Positions 6,001 to 53,700 of a DNA stretch of 64,000 bases are shown here, piece after piece. Every line of letters begins with the position of its first letter. Position 1 is the first letter of the stretch. A model generated the notes under the pieces. It was not told where the DNA came from, did not search any database, and worked only from the letters and a program-made list of their open reading frames with translations. The position numbers were made by a program, and so were the translations under genes. This DNA comes from Amoebophrya sp. A120 (lineage: Eukaryota; Protista; Dinoflagellata): the NCBI GenBank assembly GCA_905178155.1, contig CAJINV010000018.1, positions 407,028-471,027 on the forward strand, written 5' to 3'.

Positions 6001-9000
6001 GGACTATTTTCGCCTGTACTTCCTTTCTGTTGATCCTTTGCAAGTTCTCGTTTTCCTTCGTGACAAAGTTCAAAATATCGAAAGGAAAAATCCCCCCTCC
6101 CCATATCGAAAACGAAACTTGTGATGCTGTATTTGAGGTCACAAATCAGATTTGTCTTGCTGGCGAGGACTGCAGGCCCATATCCGGCCTGAGTAGACAA
6201 GTTTTGGCCTGGGCGCTTAGCATGGCAGACGTCTACACTGTAGGAGCAACAGCATGACAAACCGCCTGTAGAATGTGGCGGAGCCTGTAGACTTGCCTTC
6301 ATGCAATACAGCGACGATTTGTGGTCTCAAATCTGCATCACAAATTTTCAGAAGTGTTCCGGTTTGGTATGGGGAGGGGGGATTTTTCCTCACAATACAA
6401 AAGCTCATCCAGATAGTCGATCAACTTGAAAATCTTCTGCAGAGTGCCACTAGGCGTTCCGTCAGCCGCAAACTCGTGACTTACTACCCGGTCCATAAAC
6501 TGGTAGTGCGGGGCTGTTTGCGACACCAGGTCGAAATGCCTTTTCAGAAACCCGGTCGGACCAAGCGCAGCCTTCATTTCAGCGAGGATATTGAGGTAAA
6601 CGTTTTCCAGCTCCGGGTAGTGTGCTTCCAGCACTCCTGCGCCGTGCTCTCCAGCAGCAGCACTAGTGTCAACATCTCTTTGATCGCAAGAAAAAAGTGT
6701 TACAGTTACACATTGTGTTGCAGGAGCCGCAAGACAGACAACCTTTGTCATGCAGGAAATGCTTGCGAGGTTCGTTTTCTACATATTTTCCCTTATGATC
6801 TTTGCATTACAAGTTTTCTCTGCCACACAGAGAAAATCTGTGATGCAGAAACTCCAACAAATGTGTAACTGTAACACTTTTTTCTTGTGATATCTTTGAT
6901 CGAATGGCAACCTCGTGAATGGGTTTAGAATCTCTACCGCATCGTCTTTGCTGAACTGATATCAAATGTGAAAATGTCTGGGTCTGGAAGAATGCGTGAT
7001 TTGTCATGCAGCTTTTCCATGACCCATGAAGCCTGGAATGCAGGACCTAGCATGACAGATTCTGCGCAATCTCTCTCATGCCTTTCCTGCATGAGAAACT
7101 CCCTCCCGACTTGGTCAAAACTGGACGACTTTTGGTAATCATGCAACACAGATTTTTGCATGCTTCAGATATAGCATGACAAGTTGCATTCTTCCAGACC
7201 CAGACACTTTTACATTTGATAACTGAAAAACTCCCTGGCTCCTCGCCAAAGCCGTCAGCTCCGGGTTGGTTTGGAACTCCATCTCCGCTCGATTTTTCAC
7301 CCGGACCGCCGTCTTCAACATCAGGTGCTCTGCGCCCTTGTAGATCTGTTTATCAAGCTGGTTTGAGCTAATAGGCATTGCGTCCTGCAGTCCGCGAGTG
7401 CCAATCCAGGGGGAAGCGGGGCCTCCTGTTTCGCCACCAGCACTTGATGCTTTCTCTTCGGCGGCCGCAGCATCCTGCAACCTCCGCGGCACCATCCCCA
7501 GCGGGTTTGGCTTCGCAATGTCAAGTATCAAATGTAAAAATGTCTGGGTCTGGAAGATTGCAACTTGTCATGCTAAATCTGCAGCATGCAAAAATCTGTG
7601 TTGCATGATTACCAAAAGTCGTCCAGTTTTGACTAAGTCGGGAGGTAGTTTCTCATGCAGGATAGGCATTAGAAAGGTCTCGCAGAATCTGTCATGCGAG
7701 GTCCTGCATTCCAGACCTCATGGGTCATGGAAAAGCAGCATCACAAATCGCGCACTCTTCCAGACCCAGACATTTTTACATTTGATATCAAGAGCATCCT
7801 CTGTAGCCGCGTAGCCCGCCGGATCGTTTTTGTACAAGAGGATCTTAAAGGTCTGCAAGTCCGTGCCCCGCCGTTCCTCCGCCCTGTTGTTCCACAAAAG
7901 CTCTCGAACCAGATTCTCCGGCTGCACCAGAATCTCTGCGGCAGGTTTGTCCGCGGACGTTTTGGCCGTCGGCGACTGGACCAGGACGTGGAAGAGCGAC
8001 TTGTGGAACTCAGGAGACTGGAGAAGTTCTTGTTGCTCTCTAGTACTTCTAGAAGCAGGTTGCTGTCCTCTCGCTGGCGATGTTGCAACCAATTTCTCCG
8101 GATGCAGAATTTCTTTCACCAGTTTCTCGTACTTTTCATTCTGGTATTCGTTTTGATCTTGACGAAAAACCATCCTGTGCAAAACTATCGTACTCGTATT
8201 GCAATCATGCATAATACAAATCTTTTGATTACGGTAAATCCGCATTACAAATTTTATTTCATCTCATGCTGCGGAAGTTTGTAATGCATGTATACGAGTA
8301 CGATACTTTTGCAGTTCATAAAAACCCCAACTAAACCGTATAACCCGCTCAGGTGTTACAATCTCAAACGTTACAATAGAATTTGGAAACCTGTGATGCA
8401 AGAGCGCATGATCTAGCCAACTCTCATAGGATTGCGCATGACAAGTTCTAGAGTCCTAATCCGCACTACAATCTGGCGAAATTTGTATTGCAGAAAGTGG
8501 AATGCTGTCTGAGTCTGTCATACTCATCATGCAACACAAATGCCAGATTCTATTGTAACGTTTGAGATTGTAACATCTGAGCAGGTTATAAACCGCAGAA
8601 CGACGGCTTGGTAGTAGCTGTACCTCGTGGGGAAGTGGTTGTAGTAGCAGGGGCATCAAATGTAAAAATGTCTGGGTCTGGAAGAATGCAAGATTTGTGA
8701 TGCAGGTTTTCCATGACCCACGAGGTCTGGAATGCGAGACCCAGCATGACAGATTCTTTGAGGTCTCTATCATGNNNNNNNNNNNNNNNNNNNNNNNNNN
8801 NNNNNNNNNNNNNNNNNNNNNNNNNNNNNNNNNNNNNNNNNNNNNNNNNNNNNNNNNNNNNNNNNNNNNNNNNNNNNNNNNNNNNNNNNNNNNNNNNNNN
8901 NNNNNNNNNNNNNNNNNNNNNNNNNNNNNNNNNNNNNNNNNNNNNNNNNNNNNNNNNNNNNNNNNNNNNNNNNNNNNNNNNNNNNNNNNNNNNNNNNNNN

Positions 9001-12000
9001 NNNNNNNNNNNNNNNNNNNNNNNNNNNNNNNNNNNNNNNNNNNNNNNNNNNNNNNNNNNNNNNNNNNNNNNNNNNNNNNNNNNNNNNNNNNNNNNNNNNN
9101 NNNNNNNNNNNNNNNNNNNNNNNNNNNNNNNNNNNNNNNNNNNNNNNNNNNNNNNNNNNNNNNNNNNNNNNNNNNNNNNNNNNNNNNNNNNNNNNNNNNN
9201 NNNNNNNNNNNNNNNNNNNNNNNNNNNNNNNNNNNNNNNNNNNNNNNNNNNNNNNNNNNNNNNNNNNNNNNNNNNNNNNNNNNNNNNNNNNNNNNNNNNN
9301 NNNNNNNNNNNNNNNNNNNNNNNNNNNNNNNNNNNNNNNNNNNNNNNNNNNNNNNNNNNNNNNNNNNNNNNNNNNNNNNNNNNNNNNNNNNNNNNNNNNN
9401 NNNNNNNNNNNNNNNNNNNNNNNNNNNNNNNNNNNNNNNNNNNNNNNNNNNNNNNNNNNNNNNNNNNNNNNNNNNNNNNNNNNNNNNNNNNNNNNNNNNN
9501 NNNNNNNNNNNNNNNATTTGTGATGCTGTGAACAGGATGAGCAGATGAATCTGTGATGCGGCTGCACTTGCTAACCTGCACTACACTGCAGAGTGCAACT
9601 TGTCATGCGTGACTCACAAAATCTCCTAGGTTTGTGTTGCAAAATCCCCATCCTGACTCTGGTGTGGGTACGTTTTTACTCAGGATACAGCAACGTGTTT
9701 CTTCAAAGTTTTCGGTAAGTAATCCTTCCGACGGAGAATTTGGATCGGGAACAGTGGCATCTCCGGAATCGCGTTGTCATAGGAAGTGAACCGGAGGAAT
9801 TTTTCCAAAACCTGTCTGTTCGTGATGACTTGGAGCTTTTTCGGTTGTTCCCTGTGTTCCACCTTCTCCCACTGCGGCCCCGTCGGAGCAGAGGTAGAAC
9901 CTCCGACCGACAAAGAGCCTGCAATTCCTCTTTCCCGCAGCTGTGACACGGACTTGTTGCTTTCTTTCAGAAAACTATTACTCGGCTCGAGCAAGCAGCC
10001 CATGTTATGGATTGCAAATATGTCTGGGTGTGGAAGGTGGCAACTTGTCATGGTAAATCTGAAGCATGCAAACATCTGTGTTGCATGAGTGCCAAAAGCT
10101 GTCCACGACTTTTGACCAAGTTGGGAGGTGGGAGTTTCTCATGCAAGATAGGCATGGCAGAGACATTATCGCAGAGTCTGTCATGCTAGGTCCCGCATTC
10201 CAGACCTCAGGGGTTATGGAAAATAAGCATGACAAGTTTACACTCTTTCAGACCCAGACATTTTTGCACTTGATACATGTTGATCGTGTGCAAAATGTGG
10301 ATCGTGTCGCCCTCTTTCAAACCTGCCTTTTTCGCCCAGCCATCGAAGTCGGACACTTTTGTGGTTTGTTGCTCTTTCAACTTCTTGATCAGAATCCGCC
10401 CGTGGTGCTGCGAGAAAAAGTCCTCCAACTCGGGCTTCTGACCCGCGATGTTCGCGATCTTTGGGCTGATACTGATATCGCCGTAGAGCTTCTGCAAATT
10501 CTCCTTGGTCGGCTCTTGAATTCCGTGAATTTGCTGGTCTAGGGAAAAGCTCGTGCCGAAATCGGATACAAACTCAAAGTATCAAGTGCAAAAATGTCTG
10601 GGTCTGGTGGAAGAGTGCCAGACTTGTCACACAGGTTTTCCATGACCCATGAGGTCTGGTATGTAGGACATAGCATGACAGATTCTGTGAGAGTTCTTTC
10701 AGGCCTATCCTGCATGAGAAACTGCCTCTCGATTAGGTCAAAAGTGGACAGCTTTTGGTAGTCATGCAACACAGATCTTTACATGATTCAGATTTAACAT
10801 GACAAGTTGCTATTCTTCCAAACCCAGACATTTTTGCATTTGATACGAAGTCCTCAATTCCGAGGCCAGACAGAAGCTCCGGACCGCTGATAGAAGTACT
10901 TCCCGGGTTGGTATGAAATGCAAATATGTCTGGGTCTGGAACAATGCAAGACTTGTCATGCAGATTTTTCATGACCCATGATGCCTGTAATGCATCACCT
11001 AGCATCACAGATTTTTAGAGGACTTCCTAATGCCTAGTCCGCATCAGAAATGCCCTCTCCATGTAGCACAAACTGGACCACTCTTGCTGATCATGCAACA
11101 CAGATTTTCTTTGAATGCAGAGACAGCATTACAAGTTGCAACCTTCCAGACCTGGACACATTAGCAATGCATAGTTGGTCATCTGTCTTGTGAAATCATA
11201 GGTCAACACGTCGAACTGTTTCTTGAATTCCTCTATCGCAAGAAAAAAGTGTTACAGTCACACATTGTGTTGCAGGCCAAGCAAGACAGACCAGCTCTGT
11301 AATGCCGGATACGCATAGAGGCCTCGTTTCATAGGTGTTTTCCCGTAGGATTTCTGCATTACAAGTTTTCTCTCTCATGCTGAGAAATTTGTGTTGCTGA
11401 ATTGACTACAAATGTGTAACTGTAACACTTTTTTCCTGGGATATCCTCGTCGTAATTCTTACTGTTCTTCATCAAATCTGTCAAAAGACACCGGTTCCCG
11501 AACCGGTTTATTTCGGAATTTATCAAATGTAAAAATGTCTGGGTCTGGAAGATTGCATGGTGGTCATGCTTGTCTGGCATGACTCTTAAATCTGTCATGC
11601 ACGTTGCCCAAGAGCAGCGTTTTTCTGTCATGCGGAGACGCAATTTGTCATGCAGAATAGGCAACACCCACAAGCTCAGAAATTTGTCATGCTGAGCCAG
11701 CACTTGAGGCCTCCTCATGCTACGCCACTCAGCATCACAAGTTTCCAGACCCAGACACTTTTACATTTGATAGAATTTTTATCCTTGTATTCCTCCAACC
11801 CAATCTCGAACTTCTCGAGCTTCTTGTATGGAAGTGTCAGAATCGAAATTGACAAAATCGAAAAATTTGTGATGCAGAAAATCGATACCAGTTGGCTCCT
11901 CAGTTTGTAAGTGGCGCATGACAAATTTCGGGAGCACTCAAATCCAGTCTGTCAAGCTGTTTGGGCAAAGAAGACTGCTCCTGTCATGCTACTGTGGCAG

Positions 12001-27800: not shown

Positions 27801-30800
27801 TTACAAAATCATTGGCGTCGGCAGGAAGGGTCCGTGCCGCCACAAGGCCATCGGCGACGCCGCGTGAGATGCTAGCTCGTTGTGGTTGGTTATCAAGTGC
27901 AAAAATGTCTGGGTCTGAAAACCTGTGATGCTGAATTGAGCATGATTGAAGCGCTTGCAATGGCAGCCAAGCATGACAAGTTTTGGGACGCCTGCTTATG
28001 CCTAGAACGCATCACAAATTGCGTTTTTGCATGACAAAGGAAGTGGAACAAGCCCCTCTCTTGCTGCTCATGCAACAAAAATTTTCCAGGAATGCAAGAC
28101 ACGCATCACAAGTTCCACTGTTCCAGACCGAGACATATTTGCATTTGATATTGGTCACGTGCGTGGAGGTCCCGAAATTTTCCACAGAGTCCTGGTAGAG
28201 GAGACTGGTGTCATCGTCGTCGAACCCGGGGAAGGTCAGGTCCGATTGTTGCCCTCCCGCAGCAGCGCCGTAGTTCTTCTTCGCCACCGCGGCGGAGAGC
28301 GAAATGCTCTTCACGACGTTAATGCTGTTTTTGGCCGGCACAGAAGATTTTTGAACCAGGGTGGATGAAACAGACGACTTCTTGGAAGAAGCAGTATGGA
28401 CCTTCTTGTGGCGCGAAGATGTAGCTGTGTGTTTCATCTTCATCTCCTTCGCCCGCAGCTTCTCGTGCATTTTATCAAAGTGAAAAAAGCCCCCACCCCA
28501 TATCAAAACGAAACTTCTGATGCTGGATTTGCGTACACAAATCAGATTTGTCTTGCAGTAGGGGACTGCAGGCCGATATCATGCCAGTGCGCAGAGGTTT
28601 TGGCCTAGGCGCTTAGCATGGGGAACGCCTATGCTGTAGGACCAACAGCATTACAAACCGCCAGCATAATGGGGCGGAGCGGATGCCGTTGCTTTCTTGC
28701 AAGACAGACACGATTTGTGNNNNNNNNNNNNNNNNNNNNNNNNNNNNNNNNNNNNNNNNNNNNNNNNNNNNNNNNNNNNNNNNNNNNNNNNNNNNNNNNN
28801 NNNNNNNNNNNNNNNNNNNNNNNNNNNNNNNNNNNNNNNNNNNNNNNNNNNNNNNNNNNNNNNNNNNNNNNNNNNNNNNNNNNNNNNNNNNNNNNNNNNN
28901 NNNNNNNNNNNNNNNNNNNNNNNNNNNNNNNNNNNNNNNNNNNNNNNNNNNNNNNNNNNNNNNNNNNNNNNNNNNNNNNNNNNNNNNNNNNNNNNNNNNN
29001 NNNNNNNNNNNNNNNNNNNNNNNNNNNNNNNNNNNNNNNNNNNNNNNNNNNNNNNNNNNNNNNNNNNNNNNNNNNNNNNNNNNNNNNNNNNNNNNNNNNN
29101 NNNNNNNNNNNNNNNNNNNNNNNNNNNNNNNNNNNNNNNNNNNNNNNNNNNNNNNNNNNNNNNNNNNNNNNNNNNNNNNNNNNNNNNNNNNNNNNNNNNN
29201 NNNNNNNNNNNNNNNNNNNNNNNNNNNNNNNNNNNNNNNNNNNNNNNNNNNNNNNNNNNNNNNNNNNNNNNNNNNNNNNNNNNNNNNNNNNNNNNNNNNN
29301 NNNNNNNNNNNNNNNNNNNNNNNNNNNNNNNNNNNNNNNNNNNNNNNNNNNNNNNNNNNNNNNNNNNNNNNNNNNNNNNNNNNNNNNNNNNNNNNNNNNN
29401 NNNNNNNNNNCCCTCTTTTTGACCTCTCTGCACCCTCTGTGCCACTTAGGCGGCGCCTAAGGGTGGGCGCTTACTGCGGGCCTTATTCGCGCACCCTCTC
29501 GCGGACCCTCTCGAACGGGGTCCCGCGCCACCTCTCCACCTCTGTCGACCTCTTTTCTACCTCTGTCGACCTCTTTTTTACCTCTCGGCCACCTCTCTGG
29601 GACCCTCTGTCTACCTCTTTTTTCGCATGAATATAATGTATAGTAATCGCAATACAAATTTCCGTAGCATTAGAAATGGAATCTGTAATGCGGATTTGCC
29701 TCAAGAAAAAGATTTGTAATGCATGACTGCGAAGATTACTACGTACGAGTACGATACTTTTGCACAGGATACTCTTCGTCCTTTGCCAAAATGTCGTAGA
29801 TGCTCGCCGCCAGTTTCTCCTCTTCCTTTTTCGACACGAACTGGTTCTCGCTTTGCAAAAACTCCTTTGACTTCACGGATTGGAGAAGATTGTCGGCGTA
29901 TTTTTCTTGCTCCTTCTCCATGAAGGCATGTTGTTGTCCTTGTTCTTGATGACCAGGTGCAGCAGCCGCGTTTGTGAAGGAGATGCGATTTTTCTTCTTG
30001 GCCAAAAACCCCTGCTGATCAACATGAGTGTGCGAAACCACGGACTTCACAACATCCCGGACCGTCATCGAATCAGAAGCGGCACTCTTCTGCTGGGCAG
30101 AAGAAGTACTGGTGTGCGCGGCGGTCGGTTGCGTCTTGGAAGTAGTAGCTCCCGTAGTAGAAGACTTCTGCGCAGGGTCGTTCTTCATCTCGCGCACCTC
30201 CGTCACATAGTTGACGACCGGCGGGAGACCAGCAGTGTTCATTCTCGACGCACCAGAGGCGTTCGCCAGGAAGTTGCGGCCTTTGGAAGAAGCACCAGAG
30301 TGGTCGCTCCCGCCGACCTTCTTCTCCACGACTTTCTTCTTTGCAAAATCGGTTTCATGGTTCGCTTTGGCAAAGCCGACCTGCAGACCGTCGCGATCGA
30401 AGACGGTGAAAAAGGCGCGAATGAAGACGTCGCCCAAGATCCAGGCCGGCTTTCCCATCTGCGTCTTGGGCTCTTCGTACCTTATGTATAGTGTGGTTTA
30501 GGGTTTAGGCTTCGGAGAGTTCTGAAGTAGATGACACCGTGATAGTATGTGGATAGGATTTCTTCAAGATACGAATATAGAAGATTTGCTTGAAAACAGG
30601 CTTGAAATAATGACATCATGACAAAAAACTACACTCCTCATAGTACTACCCGAATTCCATGTCCGCGGGCATAATCCCGAGGGCGCAGTTGGTCCGCTTC
30701 CCTTTGTGATCGAACTTATCCAAGAAAAAAACTGCGTTAGTGTAACTATCTTCGGCTGGTGACAGCATCACAAATTTGCTCTGTCTACATGATGTCATGC

Positions 30801-35015: not shown

Positions 35016-35294
35016 TATCCTGAGTAAAAACGTACCCACACCAGAGTTGTAATGCAGATTTGCAAAGACAGGAAGACTTGTAACGCGCATCCCCATGAGA
35101 GCCATTCCCAATTGTGTTTTGGAATTTGTGATGCTGTGAACAGGATGAGCAGATGAATCTGTGATGCGGCTGCACTTGCTAACCTGCACCACACTGCATA
35201 GTGAAACTTGTCATGCGTGACTCACAAAACTCCTAGGTTTGTGTTGCAAAATCCTCATCCTGACTCTGGTGTGGGTACGTTTTTACTCAGGATA
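35016..35294. mobile_element. Introner, family C, upstream of the protease ATG (probable 5' UTR)
   Basis: Perfect DR AAAAT. Confidence 0.9.
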
Positions 35295-36239
35295 AAAATT
35301 GTATGATAGTCACAAAGTAGAGCACGAGCACAAGTTCGTTCGTAGACAAAACAATCAAAATTAGGAGAATAAGCTCAAGGATAATTCTGAAGAACAGCTC
35401 GAGTTGTTGTAAGTAGATAGTTCTCCTCCTCGTCTGTGCAAGGAGTTGAAAACTTTAGTCGACGAAGTCGAGTCTTGAATCCTTTCTAACGCGGCAGAAC
35501 GACACGAAATCGAACTGCCACAGGGGACGAAAGAAAAAAACTGCTGCTGTGTTGGTTTTCCAATGAAGTCGAAGAAGTTCGCTCGAACTAGAAATTGACA
35601 TTCTGATATGAATTTAGCGTGTTTGCTGAAGAGGTCACGACACTTGATGATTTGAATCTGTTCGACTCTAAGCCTTAGATTGTCCCTGTGCGATTCACTC
35701 CTATTCTTTTTCGTCCCTGGAGTCTTCGCATTTGCTGAATAGGAATAATTTGCTCTTGGAAGGACGCAGCGGAAGAAATGGTACACTTATCATATCAAGT
35801 AGCAATTGCTGTCCAACACCATGCTAGTAGACCGCCAATGTAAAAGCGAGTTTGCAAAAACGATTTGCGCGATCTTCGCTCGTGCATGTTTCGCAATATT
35901 GCTGCTCTCACTTCCATGCATAACGGCAACAGTTTTTACGTGATTTGGCGCTAAAAGATTTGACGCTCTCGTTTCTCTCGTGGGGGTGATACTCTATGAA
36001 GCGCAAAAACGACCGAGAACGACAACGAGATGCCTTGGTTACATGCCGCCGAGAACAAGAATCAGACAGATTTTTGCGAGCTGCAATGTTGCTGCGAGAG
36101 AACTCCTGTTCGCTCATCTCGTTATAATTTGAAAACTGAACCGCTCACATTAATGGATGATATTGCGGCCCTTGTCAACCGGGTTTGCAACGTGACTTGT
36201 TGACAAGGCATTCTCGCGGCGAGAACTAGGGCAGGACGG

Positions 36240-36411
36240 CACTTAGGTAAAATGGATACCAAATGATCTTGTCATGCACAGAGCCATGCTGAAAAAAGAA
36301 AAACTTCTGCTCTTGCATCTACAGCTTCGGCTTAATGCAGACGTACCCCTTCCTGGTGTCCAGGTCCAAGGCAGATCCAGCCCAGTGCCCGAATGGCAAC
36401 TGTCCAATCAA
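36240..36411 (-). pseudogene. Duplicated metacaspase fragment (partial intron plus exon LDSCHSGTGLDLPWTWTPGRG) lacking the introner
   Basis: Near-identical to 44172-44315 joined directly to 45999-46023, with a single CCAGT at 36382-36386. Confidence 0.9.
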
Positions 36412-36466
36412 AAAAAAAAACAGAAGGACTTGGACCAGGAGCTGCTCGCTCTGGTATCAATCCAGC

Positions 36467-36600
36467 GGACTTTTCTCCTTTGCAAGGAGAAAAGTCCGGA
36501 CTTTTCTCCTTTGATCCATATCAAAGGAGAAAAGTCGTCTGATCCATATCAAAGGAGAAAAGTCCGACATCGCGGACCCTCTGATCCATATCAAAGGAGA
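36467..36600. repeat. Tandem perfect hairpins
   Basis: GGACTTTTCTCCTT-tgc-AAGGAGAAAAGTCC, then GACTTTTCTCCTTTGAT-ccat-ATCAAAGGAGAAAAGTC, then two repeats of the right arm. Confidence 0.85.
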
Positions 36601-36737
36601 AACCCCGATACTTATCACAGACCCTATCCCACCCAAACCTTAGCCACCGAGCTCGTCTCCGCTCTGTTTCGCAGTGAAGATCAGAAGGAGCTTGCCTCCA
36701 CTACGTGCTAACGCGGAGATCAGCGGCCGGCTCCTAA

Positions 36738-37075
36738 GGAAGAGATTTCCTATAAAGAAACGCGGAAAGCCCAGGGGCGAGCGATTTCCTAAAAGAAATC
36801 ATGCGGAAAACCTGGACGAAGCGATTTCCCAAAGGAAATAATGCGGAAAGCCCAGGAAAAGGGATGTCCCAAAGAAAATCACGCGGAAAGCCCAGGAGAA
36901 GGGATTTCCCAAAAGAAATCACGCGGAAAGCCCAGCAAAGGGGATTGCCCAAAGGAAATCATGTGGAAAGCCCAGGAGATGGAGAAGGGATTTCGCAAAG
37001 GAAGTCATGCGAAAAACCCAGGAGAAGGGAATTCCCAAAGGAAATCACGCGGAAAGCCCAGAAGAAGGGATGTCC
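36738..37075. repeat. Minisatellite, ~41-bp unit, ~8 copies
   Basis: Unit GATTTCCCAAAAGAAATCACGCGGAAAGCCCAGGAGAAGG. Confidence 0.9.
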
Positions 37076-38523
37076 CCTTCTGAAGGAAATCTCGAGAAGC
37101 CCCGACTTCCTGAATAAGATGTTTGGAACAGGGGGCCTGTTCTAGAGAAAACGAGGGGCGAATGCGTTCAGGGCACAAAAAAACGGTGCTGCCTGTTGAC
37201 AAGGCATTCTCGTGACGGAGCGACTTACTGAGGCATTCTCGCGGCGAGAACTAGTGTTGGGAAATAGTCCCAATCCTGTTTTGCAGTGGTCGTTGGATCG
37301 TACTCGAGAGAACACAAGGCCACTAAATTCTATAACTCCATGAGTGGAGTATCTCTATCTACGTTGGCGCGATGTGTATTCCTTCGTCATAGTGGTCCAG
37401 CTAGCATTACTGAGAGAGAGTGAGAGACCTATCCTAAAAAAATATAGTCTGACTTCTAGCATGATATATTCAGTCTGTCTAATTGAAGTTCTAATTTCAC
37501 AGCTAGTCTCGCCTACATCTAAGTCTACATCTACATCCTGATAACACAACTCAACTTTTCTTCCCCGAGCGTCCTTCTTCGTTTGCCTGCTCGTTGTCCG
37601 CAACTGCTGCGGAGCTCTCGCCCTCTTACTACTCCTTTCGCCTACGCCTCGATCCCGAGCGCGCACTCCTTCTACTGGCGATTTCTCCTTTTGCTGCGTC
37701 GTCTTCGTTCCCGCCTGCCCGATGGCAAGCGCCTAGCACTACTGCTGGGCCTCTTTCTTCGTCTTCTTCGCCGGTTTCCGCGGTGGTGCTTGCTGCCTTG
37801 CTGGTCTGGTCTGCTTCCGGTGCTGGTGGCCATATGTTTTCATGCCTCTACTACAAAAACATATCTACGGCCCTTGCTCTGCTCCTTGTTCTTCTTTGTC
37901 TGCGTAAGCTTTTCCCAGTCTTTGGGCGTAGTCCTGCTGTCAGCAAATTCGACGGGTTGCGCTGTAATCCGGCGCGGTCCTCGAATCTTGCAACAATCTA
38001 GGCACTATCTTTCGCTTCGCTTTTCGTCCTTTCCTAGCCTAATAGTGCGACCCAGTCCCTTTGTAGTTGCTTCTTGCCGAGCATCTACACAAGGCGTCTA
38101 GCTCTAGCACTACTGAGCTTTCTCGCGACTTACTGAGGCATTCTCGCGGCGAGAACTAGGGCAGGACGGTGAAAAACCGATTTACTGTATACGAGAGAAA
38201 CTGTGAAATATAGATGAATCAATATTGTCCTCTGTGAAACTTTGAAACCACATACAACAGATTTGTCATCGACACTTGCTTGAATTTGTGACATTCTTCT
38301 CGACGAAGATACCTGCTCTACTCGCTCTCTCATTAGGTTTGGAAATCCAGCAACTCACAGACAGTTTTTTACTACATCGACGGCGAAGTAGGCTCGAGCA
38401 CGTGAAGATGAAGATGAGCCGCCCAGCGGCGGTTTTGGTCCTTCCAAATACAACTTCCTTCGGCAGCACGAGCGAGTGACCACAGACGGCATTATGGGGT
38501 CGTGCTGCAATATGTGGTCACAG

Positions 38524-43317: not shown

Positions 43318-46300
43318 TCAAAACAGCAAGTCCGCGAGAATCAGGCCGCCAACCACGCCCGCGCCGATGCCCAGCATGTCCGCCAAGGGGCCGTCCATTT
43401 GCCGGGGCCTGGGGGGGAATTTTCGCCGGAACACCCGGCCGTAGACTGTGTTGGTGTTCATGGTCACGGAGTCCAAGATGAACATGCGGTCCATGCCAAA
43501 CGCTTGGCTGCTGGTCAGCTGGGGCCGTTGGGAAAAGCCGCGCTGCCGCATCTGCCGGTGCAGCTCCCGCAACAGTTCATCGTAGGTCAGCGCGTTCCCG
43601 CGCGAGTAGAAATTCCGCATAGTCTCGCAAAACGCCGTGGTCATGGCGCCGGCCCGCTGTCCGTAGTAGCTCCCGCAAGGTGTGGCGTGGAAAAAACTTC
43701 AATCATGTTGTACTACAATCCCTGCGTCCCCGTCGCGTTTTCAAATACATGATCCAGCTTCTCTTGCAGCCGGAGCTTTCCACCAGAGAGGCATGAAGAT
43801 CGGGAGAAGATGGGTGAATTTTCAGATCCGCTTCGTTCGTAAATAAAACAAAAAAGAACAATAACAAAGTGCGCCTTTTCTCAAGACAAACACTTTTGCG
43901 CCTTCCGGAAGAACGTAGCGCCTACAATTCCGAACAACTGCGCTTCCCAATCCCAGAATGCTTTCGTGAGTAATAATAGTACCGACCTGGGCGGTCAGGG
44001 TTGTAGTCCTTACACTCTGTTTTTTCCACGCGATACCATCGGAGCTAGTTTGCGAGTCTTCGCACCCCGAGAACATCTGCACATCGCCGCGGGAGTGAAA
44101 TGGGTTTGTATCCTCTCGCCAACCTGGAGTTTTTTGTTTCTCAACATCCGGGAGAATCGCTATAGCACAAGCACTTAGGCAAAATGGATTCCAAATGATC
44201 TTGTCATGCACAGAGCCATGCTGAAAAAAGAAAAACTTCTCTTGCATCTACAACTTCGGCTTAATTCCGACGTACCCCTTCCTGGTGTCCAGGTCCAAGG
44301 CAGATCCAGCCCAGTTATCAAATGCAAAAATGTCCCTGGGTCTGAAAGAATGCGCGACTTGTCATGCAGCTTTTCCATGACCCATCAGGTCTGGAATGCA
44401 GGACCTAGCGCGACAGATTCTGTGCGATCTCTCTCATGCCTATCCTGCATGAGAAACTCCCTCCCGACTTGGTCAAAACTGGACGACTTTTGGTAATCAC
44501 GCAACACAGATTTTTGGTTAACTCTAGACCGCTCAGAGTGTAATCGTGATTCAAACGGAATTCAAACTGAATTCAAAAAGTTGGCATTTTCAAAAAAACG
44601 CCCCTCCGAGGGGGCGAATCGGGCGAAACAAATGCGGCGCGCGACAGCTATAGAAAACGGCCTGTAGCCGCTTTCACACGAACGCTGCGCCCTGTGCTTG
44701 GTCCAGCGGACCAGGCGCGAAACGGCAACGGGATCCAACCCCGCGAAGGAACTTCCGGGAAATGGGGCGAACGGGCTTTGGTTCGACCGGCGGCCGAAGT
44801 TTGTTATCATGCCTTAACTTGCGAACCTTGAAACCCGGCTCGGCGCCAGGGGGGTGCTGCCGGTGTAATGAGAGAAGACCCTGCCCAGCCACAGAAAAAT
44901 GCCGGGAAGCGTCGGGGGCCGGCTTATGCGGTTAGGAGCATGGCTGGCGTCGGTGTCGGGGTCGCGGCTTGGCCCGGCGAGCGCTCAAGCGAGTCAGCCT
45001 GTGCATATTGCATGTGACGCTAGTGGACAAAATGCCGCCAGGGGCGAGGCCATCCCCGGCCGCCATTCCCAATGCGGTCAGCCACCCAAGATAGCCCAGG
45101 CTAGTCTCGGTAGGTGAAGTCGAGTGGAGGCACAACTCTGGTGGCCCGACCACAAAATCCCATCCCCCACCAATTCAAAATCCATCCGAATTCTGTCAGA
45201 ATCCGTCCGAATCAAGAAGCCAAGTAGGGGACAAAATTCGGACGGAATTCCGACAGAATTCGGATGAGTTTTGAATTTGCCCCGATGGCCCCGATGGAGT
45301 TTGAATTGGGGCCGATCGTCCGGATGGGTTTTGAATTGGGGCCGGTCGTCCGGATGGAGTTTGAATTGGGGCCGGTCGATCGGATGGAGTTTGAAATTGA
45401 GATCCACTCCCCGATGAACTTTAGAATTGTTGCGCCGATCCCAAATTAGCGCCGCAAACAAGCGCAGCCCCCTTCTGCGCCCGTGCGGGCCAGTTGTAGC
45501 GTTCCTGCCTGAAGTGCCAAAGCCAACAATAGCGCCGGCCGCGGGAATGACTAGACCGCCACCCGTGTCAGACAGGCGCTACACAATAGTGGCGCGAAAT
45601 TTTAAGCCACGACAGAGCGCCGCCGCCCTTCACAGGCGATGCGGGCGTATGCCGGAAAGTGAATCAGAGCGCATCGCTCTGGCCCTCGGTCATCATTCAG
45701 CAACACTGAGAGTACGGCGCGGAGCAGCCCTTCGGGTTGAGCCCGTCCCCCGAGCCAATGAGCCAGGAGGCAGCGGCGCTACCAGGTCGCCAAAAGCTGC
45801 CGGGGCAGCAACCGCTGAGAGCCCAGGGCATCGCGGATTGTGGCTCATTTCAAAAGTGCTCACTTTTTGAATTCATTTTGAATTCGTTTTGAATTCAATT
45901 TGACACCGCCTGGTCCAGCGTTAATTTTTGGATGCTTCAGATTTAGCATGACAAGTTGCATGCTTCCAGACCCAGACATTTTTACATTTGATACCAGTGC
46001 CTGAATGACAACTGTCCATCAAACAGGTCAACCTGGCGCCCTCAGGAAGCTATCCACTGCAAAAATATCGCACGACTCTACAGATTGATTGCAGTCTGGC
46101 ACGACAAATCTAGACTTTCTACCTGATTCAACATGACAAACTGCGTACTATTTTGTTTTGGCGAAAATTTGTCATGCGATCCATACTAGTACAAGTAGGA
46201 TATTTTTGCAAAAATGCATAGCAGGGGTCGCACCACGATGTCCGCCATCTGGTCGTCGGAAATCTGGTATGAGAGCGCACAACCCCCCCTCGGTCTCATT

Positions 46301-48888
46301 TCTCATGCAAAATCCCAAATCCAATTGCTTCTTTGCGTCACTATTTATGCATGACAGACTCCGGAAGGAGCGGCCGAAACTGTACTACACTCGGCGCATG
46401 ACTTTGTCATGCACTGGCTTCACGTGTGCTGCTGTTTGTGTTGCTGTTCATGCAATACAAATGACGGGGAGCAGGGGGAGTTGTGCAGTGTCATATCTGG
46501 CCGGCCCGCTGGAAGTCACAGGGCAGGATCGTTTCGTTCATGCCGTCTTCTTCGTAGCCGTGCGGGTCCTCCTGTTGCGCGCCGTGTCCGCTGTACAGCA
46601 GAAACAGCACGTCCCCCGTATCCTGAGTAAAAACGCACCCACACCAGAGTCAGGATGGGGATTTTGCAACACAAATTTAGGAGTTTTGTGAGTCACGCAT
46701 GACAAGTTGCGCTCTGCAGTGTAGTGCAGGTTAGCAAGTGCAGCCGCGTCACAGATTCATCTGCTCATCCTGTTCACAGCATCACATCGGAGGTCTACGG
46801 GCAGTTCGTCCCTTGTGGCATCAGGCCCTACTAAAACCAATAAAAGGTTGCAGTTGAAACAAAGGCATAGTATCAAGAAAATGGAGGAACTTAGCGGGAA
46901 TTTTTACGAAGTACAACGTACGAGTAGTACCACGAGAGACGACCTAGGTCAGTGAAGCAGGGACGGCTACAGCCACACGGGGTCCCGCAGAGACCGAGTA
47001 CAGGGTACCTGACCGTGGTACATCAAAGGCCTGGAGGTCAAAGCGGGTGCTCACACAAATCGAGTCCAGGTCTACGAGTAGTGTTCACAGCATCACAAAT
47101 TCCAAAACACGATTGGAAATGGCTCTCATGGGGATGCGCATTACAAGTCTTCCTGTCTTTGCAAATTTGCATTACAACTCTGGTGTGGGTACGTTTTTAC
47201 TCAGGATACCCCGGCTTGCAGTCCTGCGTGAGCCAGTGCAGCCCGGAGAGAATGTTGCGCTTCGTTATCAAATGCAAAAATGTCTGGGTCTGGAAACTTG
47301 TGATGCTGGGTGGCGTCTCATGATGAGGCTACAAATGCTGGCTCAGCATGACAAGTTTCTGAGCTCCTAGGTGTTGCCTATTCTGCATGACAAACTACGT
47401 TTCTGCATGACAGAAAAGTGGGGCTCTTTGGTAATGTGCATGACAGATTTAAGAGTCATGCCAGACAAGCATGACAAACATGAATTCTTCCAGACCCAGA
47501 CATTTTTACAGTTGATATTCGTGGGGTGCTCGCCAAAGGTGCCCCTGCCGTCATCCGTCAAAACGCGGATTTGGTCCGTCTTCCACCGGAAAGTTTCGGT
47601 GAGGAGTATCGCGAGGAAGAATCCCCCCTTCCCATACTGAAAAGTCACGCTTTTGGATGGAAATTTGTGATGCTGGTTTATGGTCACAAATCATGTCTGT
47701 CTTGCAAGAAAGCAAACCCAGAAGGCCCCCCGCATTATGCCGGCGGATTGTCATGCCGTTGGGCCTACAGCATAAGCTTTTGCCGTGCTGAGCGCCTGGG
47801 CCAAAACCTCCCCGCTCAGGCTTAGTCTGGGCCTGCAGTCCTCTACTGCAAGACAAGGTTGATCGGTGTACGCAAATCCAGCATCAGAAATTTCGTTTTG
47901 ATATGGGGAGGGGGGTTTTGTTTTCCTTTTGATAAGGAGCCGGTACACATTCTGCACGTCGTTGATGCAGCCCTTCAGCTATGGATTGCAAACATGTCTG
48001 GGTCTGGAAACTTGTGATGCAAGTCAGTCAAGAACAAATGCACTGTAATGCGCCGCCAAGCATGATAAGTTTTTTCGTGCTTCTGTGCTTCGTATTCCGC
48101 ATGAGAAACTGCGTTTTTGCATGACAGGCGAGACCGAGAGAGGCTGTTTCGATGGCCCTACGCAATACAGATTTAAAGGCCATACCAGATCAGCATGACA
48201 AATCTCGCAATTTTCCAGACCTAGATACATATTATGCATTCCATATCAACTCTGCCCGCGTGCCTCGGTAATTGATCCCGATTAGCAGCGCCTTCTGCCG
48301 CCCGGTCAACGGAGGCGGTGCGTGCCCTCCTTGCGGAAAGGGTTGTTGGTAGTTTGGCATATTGCCGTACCCCGATGGACGCTGCTGCATCGGCTGGCCT
48401 TGCGGGCTGATGTTGCTGTGCTGTTGTTGACCACCCGCCGACGACATGGGGACTTGCTGCGACTGTAGAAAGAGAAAAAAATGTTTTACTCGTCCCACGT
48501 TCTTTCATCTAGCGGCAACAGTCAATGACCACGTCACAAGAAAAACAAACTACGAATGCAACTTCCTGAAGAGGAGTTGCGAACATCACCGCTCTAGAAC
48601 CTCTACAACGAGCAATCAAAGTCAAAGACGAGCCTGTAGTGTTAAATAGTAAACTACAACGTGTAAGTGCTATATGCTCACCTGCATTTGTGGTATTTGC
48701 CCCCCGCCACTCAGCGGCACCACCTGGCCGTCGGGGGTCATCCTGCCTGGAATTTGGTTGTGCCCAATCACGTTGCCATTTTGGTCCACCACCGGCTGCA
48801 GCAGCATCACCTCCTGCTGTTGGTTCTGCTGCCGCTGGTACCGCCGCCGTTCGTTGGTGCCATCAAGGTCGGAAATACACCCACCCAT
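43318..48888 (-). CDS. MCA1: Type I metacaspase (peptidase C14B) with Q/P-rich prodomain and N-terminal MGGC acylation-like motif
   Basis: Spliced protein has KALLIGINY..LKGCIND, catalytic YSGHG and MDSCHSGTG, FSGCEDSQTSSD and GAMTTAF. GT-AG introns at 48463-48681 and 44124-44275, plus 8 introners. Confidence 0.93.
43681..44035. mobile_element. Old G/K-like introner with eroded DR
   Basis: Termini TGTGGCGTGGAAAAAAC / GTTTTTTCCACGCGATA; removing it plus 5 nt restores SSDG-GSYYGQRAGAM. Confidence 0.7.
44316..45993. mobile_element. Introner, family A, carrying a nested TIR element
   Basis: Perfect DR CCAGT; empty-site copy at 36382. Confidence 0.92.
44518..45924. mobile_element. Nested non-autonomous TIR transposon (~1.4 kb)
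   Basis: ~75-bp imperfect TIRs starting TTAAC and rich in GAATTCAAA; flanking TTTTTGG duplication; internal 30-bp tandem repeat at ~45260-45420. Confidence 0.8.
46051..46220. mobile_element. Introner, family L, degenerate
   Basis: TATCCACTGCAAAAATATC / GATATTTTTGCAAAAATGCATA; DR GAAGC/GCAGG; frame restored. Confidence 0.8.
46268..46495. mobile_element. Introner, family I
   Basis: Perfect DR TCTGG. Confidence 0.9.
46619..47208. mobile_element. Introner, family C, with 295-bp nested insert (46787-47081)
   Basis: Perfect DR CCCCG; insert flanked by a 16-bp duplication. Confidence 0.9.
47266..47517. mobile_element. Introner, family A (reverse orientation of 11521)
   Basis: Perfect DR TTCGT. 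Confidence 0.9.
47607..47934. mobile_element. Introner, family B
   Basis: Perfect DR AGGAG. Confidence 0.9.
47980..48245. mobile_element. Introner, family A (interior like 820)
   Basis: DR TCAGC/TCAAC. Confidence 0.88.
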
Positions 48889-50777: not shown

Positions 50778-53700
50778 TCACCCTTGAGCAAAATTGGACA
50801 AATCCCGAAGCAAGGCATCGGCCTCCTTGAACAAAAGTCGGACGGGTATGCATTGCAAATATGTATGGCTATGGACTTGGATCATGAAGTAAAAATGCCT
50901 GTCTTGCATGCCCGCCTTTCGTCCTGTGATGTAGATGCGCCGCTGCAAGAAGTTAGTAGTCCTCGTGTATAAATTGTTTTGCATATAATGAAGATTGTGC
51001 GAAAGAGCAACAGCGACAACGAAAAGCGAGGCCTTCCTTTGTTCTGATTCGCACATCGGCGTGATGAAGAAGATCTGATGCGCTCTAACAAGCTCTATGC
51101 TCCACCACGACCACGACTACAACAACGGATAATGTCGATGAATAGGCCCCGGCGCCCCCCGGGGGCGGGGCCCGGTGGCGGCGGCGTCCGCGGGCTCTTG
51201 TCGAGGCCGCCCGGCAGGCGCCCCCGTAACTTGCGCCCTTCCGCCCCCGCCTTTTTCTTCGGTTTGCGACTTTTTTTCTTCACTTTGCGACTTTTTTTCT
51301 TCACTTTGCGGCTTTTCTTCTTCAGTTTGCGACCTTTTTTCCTCAGTTTGCAAATTTTTTTCTTCAGTTTGCGACCTTTTTTGCTATTAATTTTCGACAC
51401 AAAAAAGCGGCACAGAATGGCTTCCAGGCGGGAAGCGCCGGGGGCACCGGCGGGGCAGCGCGCGGCGCACCCACAAGCTCCGGCGGCCGCCCACAAAGCC
51501 GCGCGGAGCACCTTCCACGCTGCGCACGCCTTTTGTTTTTTGGCTAGTTTCGCGAGTTTTTTCGTGCCCCGGCTTTTTTTTTATGTCCCGGCGGCATTTT
51601 TCCCTGCTTTGCGCGGCCAAACAGGACGCCGCTTGTCATTTTTTTCCCTTTAAGCAGGTCCCAATAATCTTGCGCGCCGGAACGTACCTGCACCGCGCCG
51701 ATACGCCCCAACTTGTTTTGCTTCCACGGGATTTTCCTTTCCGCTGGAGCCCTCTTAAGGTCCACTTTCCCGCGGTTCTGCGTCGCCCACGAGTCCGGAA
51801 AAAGACTTCGGGATTACTTCGGTTTTACTTAGGATTCACTTAGGCCAACACTTAGGTTTATCGAGAAAAACCAATACTAAAAGCTCTATGCTCCACCACG
51901 ACCACGACTACAACAACGGATAATGTCGATGAATAGACACGACATCATGCATAGAAATTCAACTGTAACGGTTCGCCCACTACTTCACAGGTAGGACGAC
52001 TTCTGAGTAGAACCATACACACCTTAAAGACTTATTTGCAATGCGTAGCGCGCTTCTGCTGTTCCACCACGGCGCCCGCGGCTCTGATGTATTTTTCGTC
52101 GTGCGCGGATCTGAATAGCCGGATCTCTTCTTCTGGCACCGCTGGAGGGGAAACATAAACAAGATCAGGCTCCTGATGTTGTTCTCCGGCCGTGCTGCTC
52201 GTGCCGCTGCTTTCGCTGGAAAAATATTCGTCGTGGTCCAGAAGAGGATCTTCCTCTTCTGCTTCAGGAAGCAGGTCAGAATCCGAGTCGGCGACGACTT
52301 GCTGCACCCTTCGGAAACCTGGTCGTGTAGTATTGGCAGCAGGCGGAGGCGGAGGTGGCCCCCGCGAGTAGAGCACATCTTCACGAAGATCTGCTTCTTC
52401 CTTGCCGGCCCTGATGCGTTCGACTTGGTCGGCTTTGTTTTCCAAAAAGTGCTGGCAAGCGTCGTGCATGGAGGGGGGGAGCCGCGAGAGAATGGCATAC
52501 CGCGCCAGGGTGCTTTTGGGCATCAAGTAGTTCTGCGCCCCCTCTCTTTGCCTCGTTTTTAGCGAATAAATTTTGTTTCTGTCCACCTCCTGGCAGGAAT
52601 ATAGCTCGCCTTCATCTTCTTTCTTGCTCTTCCCTGAAGTGGCGGGCCTTGTTCCTGTGGCAGTTGCTGTTGGTGTTGTCGTGGTTGATAGTAGTTGTAT
52701 TCCCGGTCCTTTGACGCTATAGGTGGTAAAGCTCCACTGCGCGTCGGAGTAGTCAGAGTTCAGCACTTCCTTGCGCGCCTCGTCCAGCACAGTTTTGTAG
52801 TCGGCCCCGTACTCAGTCTCGTTTTTGTTCGGCATGGCAATGCGAAACACTTCGCTGACATCCACCGCCATGCGTTCCTCCAAGCGCACTCGCATCCACA
52901 CAGCTTCGAGGGCTCTAGCAAGAAGACGCGTTGCTATTGCCTTAGCTGCAGGGTCAGCGGCGCCAGTCCTCGTGGCGCATGCGCCCCTACTCACCAGGCC
53001 CGCTGCTTCACCCCGCTCGCGTAGTTCTCCGATATTCGGAAAGCGGTAGGACCTTCTGGATCGGGTCCAGCAGAAGCTCCTGCCACACCTCTCTGCTTCT
53101 ACCACGGGGGGCGCGACAGGAGTTGCGGTGTTGACGTGTGGCGTAGGTACAGTTTTTGGAGCTGCTCCCATTTTTGCGACGTCCTCCCGAGATAAAGTTT
53201 CCCCTTCTGGTCTCTTTCTCCTTTTTGGCAGCTGCTTCCGACTGCGTTGGCCGCTGATGATAGCTCGCTGCAACATCTCTCGTCGCAGTTGCTTCATATT
53301 ATCATTATGCGACGAAGCGCCATTTTCTACATTTACTTTTTTTGTATCAGGATGCTCAGTATCAGTATCTTGCTGGCCAAACCAATCGTCCAGCATCCCG
53401 CGCGCCGCCTCCCAAACTTCGTCGCGCGTCCATGTTGTCTATCAAGTGCAAAAGTGTCTGGGTCTGGAAAAGTGTAAACTTGTCACGCAGCAGATTTTCC
53501 ATAACCTTAACCCATGAGGTCTGGAAAGAACGAAATGGAATGTGGGATTTAGCATGACAGAATCTGCGAGGTCTCTGCCATGCCTATCCTGCATGAGAAA
53601 CTCCCTTCCATGTTGGTCAAAAGTGGACAGCTTTTGGCACTCATGCAACACAGATTTTTGCATGCTTCAGATTTACCATGACAAGCTGCCACCTTCCAGA

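Follow-up and report, generated by a model that had tools for sequence, protein, structure and literature searches.

The locus described here raises the question of whether a short, non-coding copy of an exon that lacks an introner preserves the state of the gene before the introner arrived, or instead reflects the precise removal of that introner from the template. The window, a stretch of 64,000 nucleotides from contig CAJINV010000018.1 of Amoebophrya sp. A120, contains a metacaspase gene interrupted by introners and, 7.8 kb away, a copied fragment of the same gene in which one of these introners is absent. The features needed for the comparison are the following:

43321..48888, minus strand: metacaspase gene (Peptidase_C14) whose 430-aa product, mapped in 11 pieces, is identical to protein P0001
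44124..44275, minus strand: canonical GT-AG intron of 152 nt beside the introner site, placed by protein mapping
44316..45993, no strand assigned: introner in the metacaspase gene, with TAT...ATA ends that are complementary at 17 of the 18 terminal bases, and CCAGT flanks
44518..45923, no strand assigned: TIR element nested within the introner and showing an 8-9-bp duplication
36240..36409, minus strand: non-coding copy of metacaspase DNA, whose source is gene positions 44172-44315 plus 45999-46020
36382..36386, plus strand: single CCAGT, the empty introner site, located by alignment to the gene

All 430 residues of P0001, an Amoebophrya sp. A120 protein that also has an A25 orthologue at 76%, mapped to the window, and the mapping placed the GT-AG intron at 44275-44124. 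Removing each TAT...ATA element together with one 5-bp repeat left the metacaspase frame continuous for the first four elements, which had exact ends (two further elements had approximate ends only), and keeping both repeats broke the frame. For the introner at 46031-46244 in the same gene, the two 5-bp repeats are now mismatched, and the annotated frame needs the element and five bases to be removed.

The introner at 44316-45993 is 1,678 bp long and consists of a 264-bp introner core and the nested 1.4-kb element, a different transposon type within an introner, with an internal palindrome and a 30-bp array. It possesses the TAT-start inverted repeat, the seven variable bases and the at least three A that characterize A120 introners, its boundary repeat of 5 bp (identical in both copies) falls within the 3-5 nt range, and it belongs to a repeated family, five siblings of which, differing by 6.1-8.4%, lie in the window. 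Its putative removal from the mRNA is consistent with the restored frame and with the annotated P0001, which spans the junction. The element ends are predicted to pair over approximately 40 bp (-53 kcal/mol), which would join the two repeats, and three sibling introners are also predicted to fold end to end on both strands. Members of the subfamily occur in minus-strand genes in either orientation, and the frame is restored in each case: of three siblings compared, two are oppositely oriented in such genes.

The copy lies between two minus-strand genes, in the same orientation as its source. It contains the GT donor, 104 of the 152 intron nucleotides and the 63 nt of exon that surround the catalytic Cys motif, and is identical in 163 of 174 columns to the gene from which the element and one repeat have been removed. 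This match is not a chance one, as the left 148 nt alone gave a blastn E-value of 2e-60. The differences comprise seven substitutions (five in the 104 aligned intron nucleotides, two in the exon) and two insertions in the copy, one of 3 nt in the intron part and one of 1 nt near its end. CCAGT is present in the gene at 44311-44315 and 45994-45998, one flanking either end of the introner, and once in the copy. When the junctions of all 47 elements picked by their TIRs were searched in the window, that of the copy was the only empty one. One end of the copy is located mid-exon and the other mid-intron, neither at a splice site; an end at the branch point was considered and dropped, the acceptor mapping 47 nt further on.

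An earlier, sequence-only reading of this stretch had described the single CCAGT opposite the two of the gene, the retention of about 100 nt of the GT-AG intron and two synonymous exon differences, and the alignment confirmed each of these. The exon differences, TGT/TGC (Cys) and TCA/TCG (Ser), are weak as evidence (P = 0.06), about one quarter of the possible changes in these codons being synonymous, and polarising them with outgroups gave no information because the codons are saturated. The start given by that reading (36240) also stood, but its end at 36411 did not, since homology stops at 36409 and a run of eleven A (A11, 36410-36420) then begins. Its term paralogue has to be abandoned: the copy is a fragment and not a paralogous gene, a search of the surrounding DNA revealed no further metacaspase remnant near it, and the P0001 cluster has one member on one contig.

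The status of the 5-bp repeat could be established independently of the copy. Among 47 elements of the window chosen by inverted ends alone, 32 had an exact 5-bp direct repeat, with 31 different 5-mers, compared to a mean of 0.04 for shuffled flanks. The other elements matched at 4/5 positions (8), at 3/5 (4) or at none (3, of which at least one is a mis-picked inner repeat), and exact repeats of 3, 4, 6, 7 or 8 bp were found in 0 of the 47. The elements thus combine TIRs with a target-site duplication (TSD) of constant length and locus-specific sequence, as non-autonomous TIR DNA transposons (MITEs) do. Imperfect repeats are carried by 15 of the 47 elements; which copy decays could reveal the placement of the splice sites.

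A metagenome scan with P0001 yielded 21 loci, and the introner or insertion DNA of the window was absent from all of them. The introner site was uninterrupted in 18 of the 21, and three lacked the motif searched. Most of these loci are short and intronless, probably transcripts, so that just the six intron-bearing ones count (L012, L016, L017, L019, L020 and L021, with L016 and L017 near-identical). The site was uninterrupted in all six, and the empty state is thus ancestral. A GT-AG intron at the same place was found in none of these metagenome loci. At L012 (5001-6843), a close metacaspase orthologue on an AT-rich contig has a single intron elsewhere and no introners in the gene, and its source is possibly an introner-free relative.

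Taken together, the window-wide statistics, the restored frame and the uninterrupted related loci identify the repeat around 44316-45993 as a TSD even without the copy. The sequence-only reading had drawn the same conclusion from the copy; the conclusion holds, but its main support lies in these three lines of evidence and not in the copy.

Two further observations concern the introners of the window. A single 7-mer recurs across families, in 35 of 41 introners, and in several of these it lies approximately 40-48 nt from an end and in mirror orientation, with 83 matches in 14.9 kb inside introners versus 35 in 47.7 kb outside. It might serve a transposase as its site or act as a splicing signal that works both ways. 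The same 7-mer is also present in the GT-AG intron (at 44202, and at 36270 in the copy), and that intron might be an old introner. The closest introner pair of the window (35016-35294 and 46619-47208; 13/279 differences, the best of 117 aligned pairs) possesses a separate 5-bp TSD for each member. Within the member in the metacaspase gene (46619-47208), 295 bp have been inserted (46787-47081), flanked by a 16-bp duplication of which the sibling at 35016-35294 has one copy. This is a second empty-site pair, between the same two regions and at the same divergence as the copy, and is a hint of local hopping.

The surroundings of the copy had escaped the sequence-only reading, accurate as it was on the copy itself: the copy is the left end of a 1.9-kb composite unit bounded by two perfectly matching copies of a 34-bp direct repeat, and it adjoins the A11 run. 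The parts of the unit are the following:

36206..36239, plus strand: 34-bp direct repeat, left copy, a perfect match to the right copy
36410..36423, plus strand: A11 run plus CAG, whose gene counterpart is AAACAG at 46021-46026
36421..37193, no strand assigned: unclassified segment in which palindromes are nested (36466-36604) and a 40-bp unit is repeated 7.7 times (36762-37076)
37194..37254, plus strand: further partial copies of the end motif, 37220-37254 being identical to 38125-38159 (35 bp)
37255..38124, no strand assigned: unclassified segment of approximately 870 bp between two 35-bp repeats, with two plus-strand ORFs
38136..38169, plus strand: 34-bp direct repeat, right copy, a perfect match to the left copy

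The second perfect repeat pair, of 35 bp, lies inside the 34-bp frame, and the two pairs overlap. The left 34-bp repeat contains a 15-nt palindrome that directly abuts CTAG. The framing repeats are perfect despite the divergence of the copy (P = 0.03 for 69 bp at 4.8%; P = 0.33 at the lower bound), and the copy may therefore have been captured earlier and moved. No part of the unit recurs elsewhere in the window. The segment 36421-37193 contained no tRNA (0 genes with ARAGORN), no Rfam family at the gathering score and no hammerhead core, the Rfam scan giving only three sub-threshold microRNA-hairpin matches, on the palindromes. The Pfam search returned nothing for three ORFs over the insertion, and the two plus-strand ORFs of 37255-38124 had no Pfam match.

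At the left junction, the last base of the 34-bp repeat constitutes a 1-nt microhomology with the gene; at the right junction, the microhomology is of 6 nt (AAACAG). A TSD directly around the copy would repeat bases of the right junction upstream, but no 6-mer or longer word of that junction was found again in the 940 bp on that side. The A11 run is the longest A/T run of the window and the sole one of at least 10 among 2,184 runs of at least 3; it adjoins exactly one end of the copy, on the strand antisense to the metacaspase gene. The CAG that follows it equals that of the gene, a 1 in 64 coincidence were A11 a tail. The run is ambiguous: it looks like a tail, yet it is antisense to the gene and its CAG match resembles microhomology.

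Several element classes were compared with the copy and its unit. For a processed pseudogene, the copy retains too much intron (104 nt), its A11 is on the antisense rather than the sense strand, and the flanking TSD is missing from the upstream stretch searched. Of the features of a twin-primed retro-insertion, the inverted arm and the A11 are present, the sense arm is absent, and the 34-bp repeat lies 1.7 kb away. A canonical Helitron was rejected for the 36240-38169 unit on the basis of palindrome, insertion site and duplication. The unit resembles the Helitrons of PMC4067079, as far as its available text describes them, in its palindrome, its three CTAG ends (the 3' CTRR), its internal tandem array and its intron-containing gene fragment. 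It differs from them in that the palindrome measures 15 nt and abuts CTAG, where 16-20 nt about 11 bp from the 3' end is expected, in that T follows one and G two of the three CTAG ends, where insertion occurs between A and T without duplication, and in its long direct-repeat frame (34 and 35 bp).

Penelope-like elements carry a hammerhead ribozyme core in their terminal repeats. This class was also rejected for the unit, with no hammerhead found in 35300-38520 or in the Rfam scan; the core motif had 0 matches in 35300-38520 and 8 in the whole window. Elsewhere in the window, at 51085-51936, a 61-bp near-perfect direct repeat (98%) surrounds a segment that is rich in GC and contains a 21-bp array; this is another insert with a long duplication.

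The sequence-only reading had proposed dating the copy by comparing its divergence from the gene with that of the element from its family, and on the window data this comparison neither supported nor contradicted either order. The core and three siblings, from which it differs by 6.1-6.9%, form a star with 6-8 private changes each in 262 columns, or about 3% per lineage. The 8/262 private changes of the element in the gene are an upper bound on its insertion age. The intron divergence between copy and gene was 5/104, or 4.8% pairwise (95% CI 1.6-10.9%), which could not be distinguished from the sibling distances (Fisher P = 0.63-0.80). Under a crude model, the probability that the copy is older was 0.36-0.47 when set against the full private divergence of the element and 0.76-0.84 if insertion took place at a uniform later time. 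The ages of copy and introner are indistinguishable.

The explanation that we favour, with a probability of roughly 55%, is that the copy arose locally, as an insertion templated by DNA, at a time when the gene did not yet contain the introner. Repair of a break or of a stalled fork within the intergenic repeat cluster would have briefly copied the nearby, then uninterrupted gene, as a FoSTeS/MMBIR-type templated insertion. A member of the TAT...ATA burst would later have inserted at CCAGT, duplicating it, and become an intron whose removal with one repeat restores the frame; a second TIR element would then have inserted within this introner. Local DNA copying is favoured by the proximity of 7.8 kb, the microhomology, the retained intron and the ends away from splice sites. 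The chance of a random site this near the source is approximately 2e-4 for a 100-Mb genome, a figure softened by the fact that in-window copies alone were visible. The lack of a TSD next to the copy, the antisense A-run with its matching CAG and the ancestral empty state also count in favour of this explanation. The order, copy before introner, is allowed because the ages overlap (5/104 pairwise versus the upper bound of 8/262).

According to the available text of PMC5120786, templated insertions show microhomology at their junctions. The copy resembles the FoSTeS/MMBIR events described there in its short, nearby-templated stretch (template 7.8 kb away), its junction microhomology of 1 and 6 nt and its complex neighbourhood; it differs in that those events are known from human rearrangements, and the 11-nt A-run and 34-bp frame fall outside their signature. 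As for iterated template switching, the unit is composite, but no source of its other segments was found within the window. Against DNA copying stands the A11 run, which is predicted by a poly(A) tail and not by DNA copying. That the copy is the older of the two does not follow from the ages, and the perfect framing repeats and the absence of non-synonymous exon substitutions (P = 0.06) also speak against this explanation.

Nor does the empty site fix the order of copying and insertion, because a polymerase can skip the hairpin between its repeats. The two alternatives of the sequence-only reading were duplication before insertion, which is the one favoured here, and precise removal, which is less probable; it had not considered this third route. 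The copy may thus postdate the insertion, a DNA-repair polymerase or reverse transcriptase having slipped between the CCAGTs across the hairpin base, or the element having been cleanly excised later. We judge this unlikely: the predicted pairing would bring the repeats together in this element and its siblings would fold too, and the ages overlap, but an extra rare event is required and an empty junction was found for only one of the 47 window elements. The available text of PMC9262586 documents that an inverted-repeat insert between flanking direct repeats can be lost precisely when yeast DNA replicates, but the deletions in break-induced replication are mostly imprecise and the repeats there are 9 bp, against 5 here; for reverse transcriptases, such skipping is documented in the corresponding part of PMC8240250. 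Were it true, the empty site would be uninformative on age or splicing.

A retro-copy of partly processed RNA, with the introner out and the GT-AG intron still in, either polyadenylated in antisense or as a twin-primed inverted arm with a short poly(A), is slightly less credible. It would account for an A11 that is unique in the window and sits at exactly one end of the copy, and an antisense arm with poly(A) has the twin-priming geometry described in the accessible part of PMC12016303, if the non-inverted arm was reduced to the tail. The occurrence of the subfamily in both orientations with the frame restored makes removal from antisense RNA conceivable, and the non-LTR-type introner families reported in A120 in the part of PMC12130899 consulted suggest that a reverse transcriptase probably exists. 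However, a retro-copy is not expected 7.8 kb from its source, the CAG after the A-run matches the gene, no adjacent TSD was found, the 34-bp repeat lying 1.7 kb further on, and polymerase skipping or unspliced RNA from before the insertion yields the same product. The stronger version, in which the copy is a genomic fossil of an RNA that had lost its hairpin introner and kept its GT-AG intron, possibly antisense and poly(A)-ended, is improbable. If it were true, the removal of TAT...ATA introners would precede that of ordinary spliceosomal introns or be independent of it, and would be possible on either strand; such copies across the genome would record splicing order where no U1 snRNA has been found.

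Equally doubtful as the retro-copy is the idea that the copy is all that is left of a larger duplicate, or represents a divergent allele, or was captured earlier by a mobile element and moved as a passenger within the 1.9-kb unit, in each case still predating the introner. It fits the synonymous nature of both exon substitutions, framing repeats that look younger than the copy, and palindromes and a tandem array that resemble the nested TIR element in the gene; against it are the single-member P0001 cluster, the lack of any neighbouring metacaspase remnant, the improbability of a landing site 7.8 kb from the source for a passenger of other origin, and the mismatch with canonical Helitrons. An assembly artefact, in which exact repeats of 34-35 bp caused the unit to be joined in or DNA of a related strain was co-assembled, is very improbable. 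The framing repeats are about k-mer length, one junction is a homopolymer, and the window has two N gaps elsewhere, but the seven substitutions, two indels and sharing of only 1 and 6 nt at the junctions do not suit a collapsed or duplicated gene read, no N occurs between 29411 and 64000, and a mis-join would not favour a spot so near the source. The two gaps (8775-9515 and 28720-29410, approximately 700 bases each) both lie beside introner-like DNA.

The comparison with published systems concerns mainly the introners. Those of the window share with A120 introners, in the portions of PMC7789003, PMC12130899 and PMC11282704 available, the TAT-start inverted repeats, the seven variable bases, the A stretch, the short direct repeats at exon boundaries, the many families and the lineage-specific positions. 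That Amoebophrya introner repeats are TSDs is known already (PMC11282704, which gives 3-5 nt, and the supplement of PMC12130899). The available text of PMC7789003 likens the repeats to MITE TSDs and doubts a general mobilisation by transposase, and in that of PMC12130899 many A120 families are placed among the TIR DNA transposons. Of the 58 rows for A120 families in the supplement of the latter, the 21 seen give, in the TSD column as we interpret it, 5 in three, 2-4 in eleven and none in seven. The repeats picked here from TIR ends are, by contrast, uniformly 5 bp. The within-locus TSD test is the same as in the consulted part of PMC9860276, and a two-way orientation of introners is known in another dinoflagellate from the accessible text of bioRxiv 10.1101/2020.10.14.339549.

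The copy itself shares with paralogous empty sites (PMC4067079, available text) a related, element-free locus that carries one copy of the target, but it is a 170-bp piece that overlaps the insertion in age and was maybe made from a skipped or spliced template; for these reasons an allele or orthologue would be stronger proof. With the twin-primed processed pseudogenes in the portion of PMC12016303 seen, it shares the inverted arm beside a poly(A) run and differs in lacking a non-inverted cDNA arm, retaining an intron, having no adjacent TSD and being local. No description of an empty-site copy in Amoebophrya was found in the introner literature, of which parts were available. New here are the non-coding copy 7.8 kb from its source, the 34-bp-framed 1.9-kb unit, the junction microhomologies and the A11 run.

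Introner mobility and splicing in the absence of a detectable U1 snRNA are left open in the available text of PMC7789003, and one such copy cannot settle either. A caution follows for cDNA evidence of introner splicing, as hairpins between direct repeats are structures that reverse transcriptases skip. Overall, the copy mostly confirms the published view of introners as small transposons. Within the window, introners behave as MITE-like DNA transposons with a single TSD length of 5 bp, and this uniformity sharpens the published 3-5 nt.
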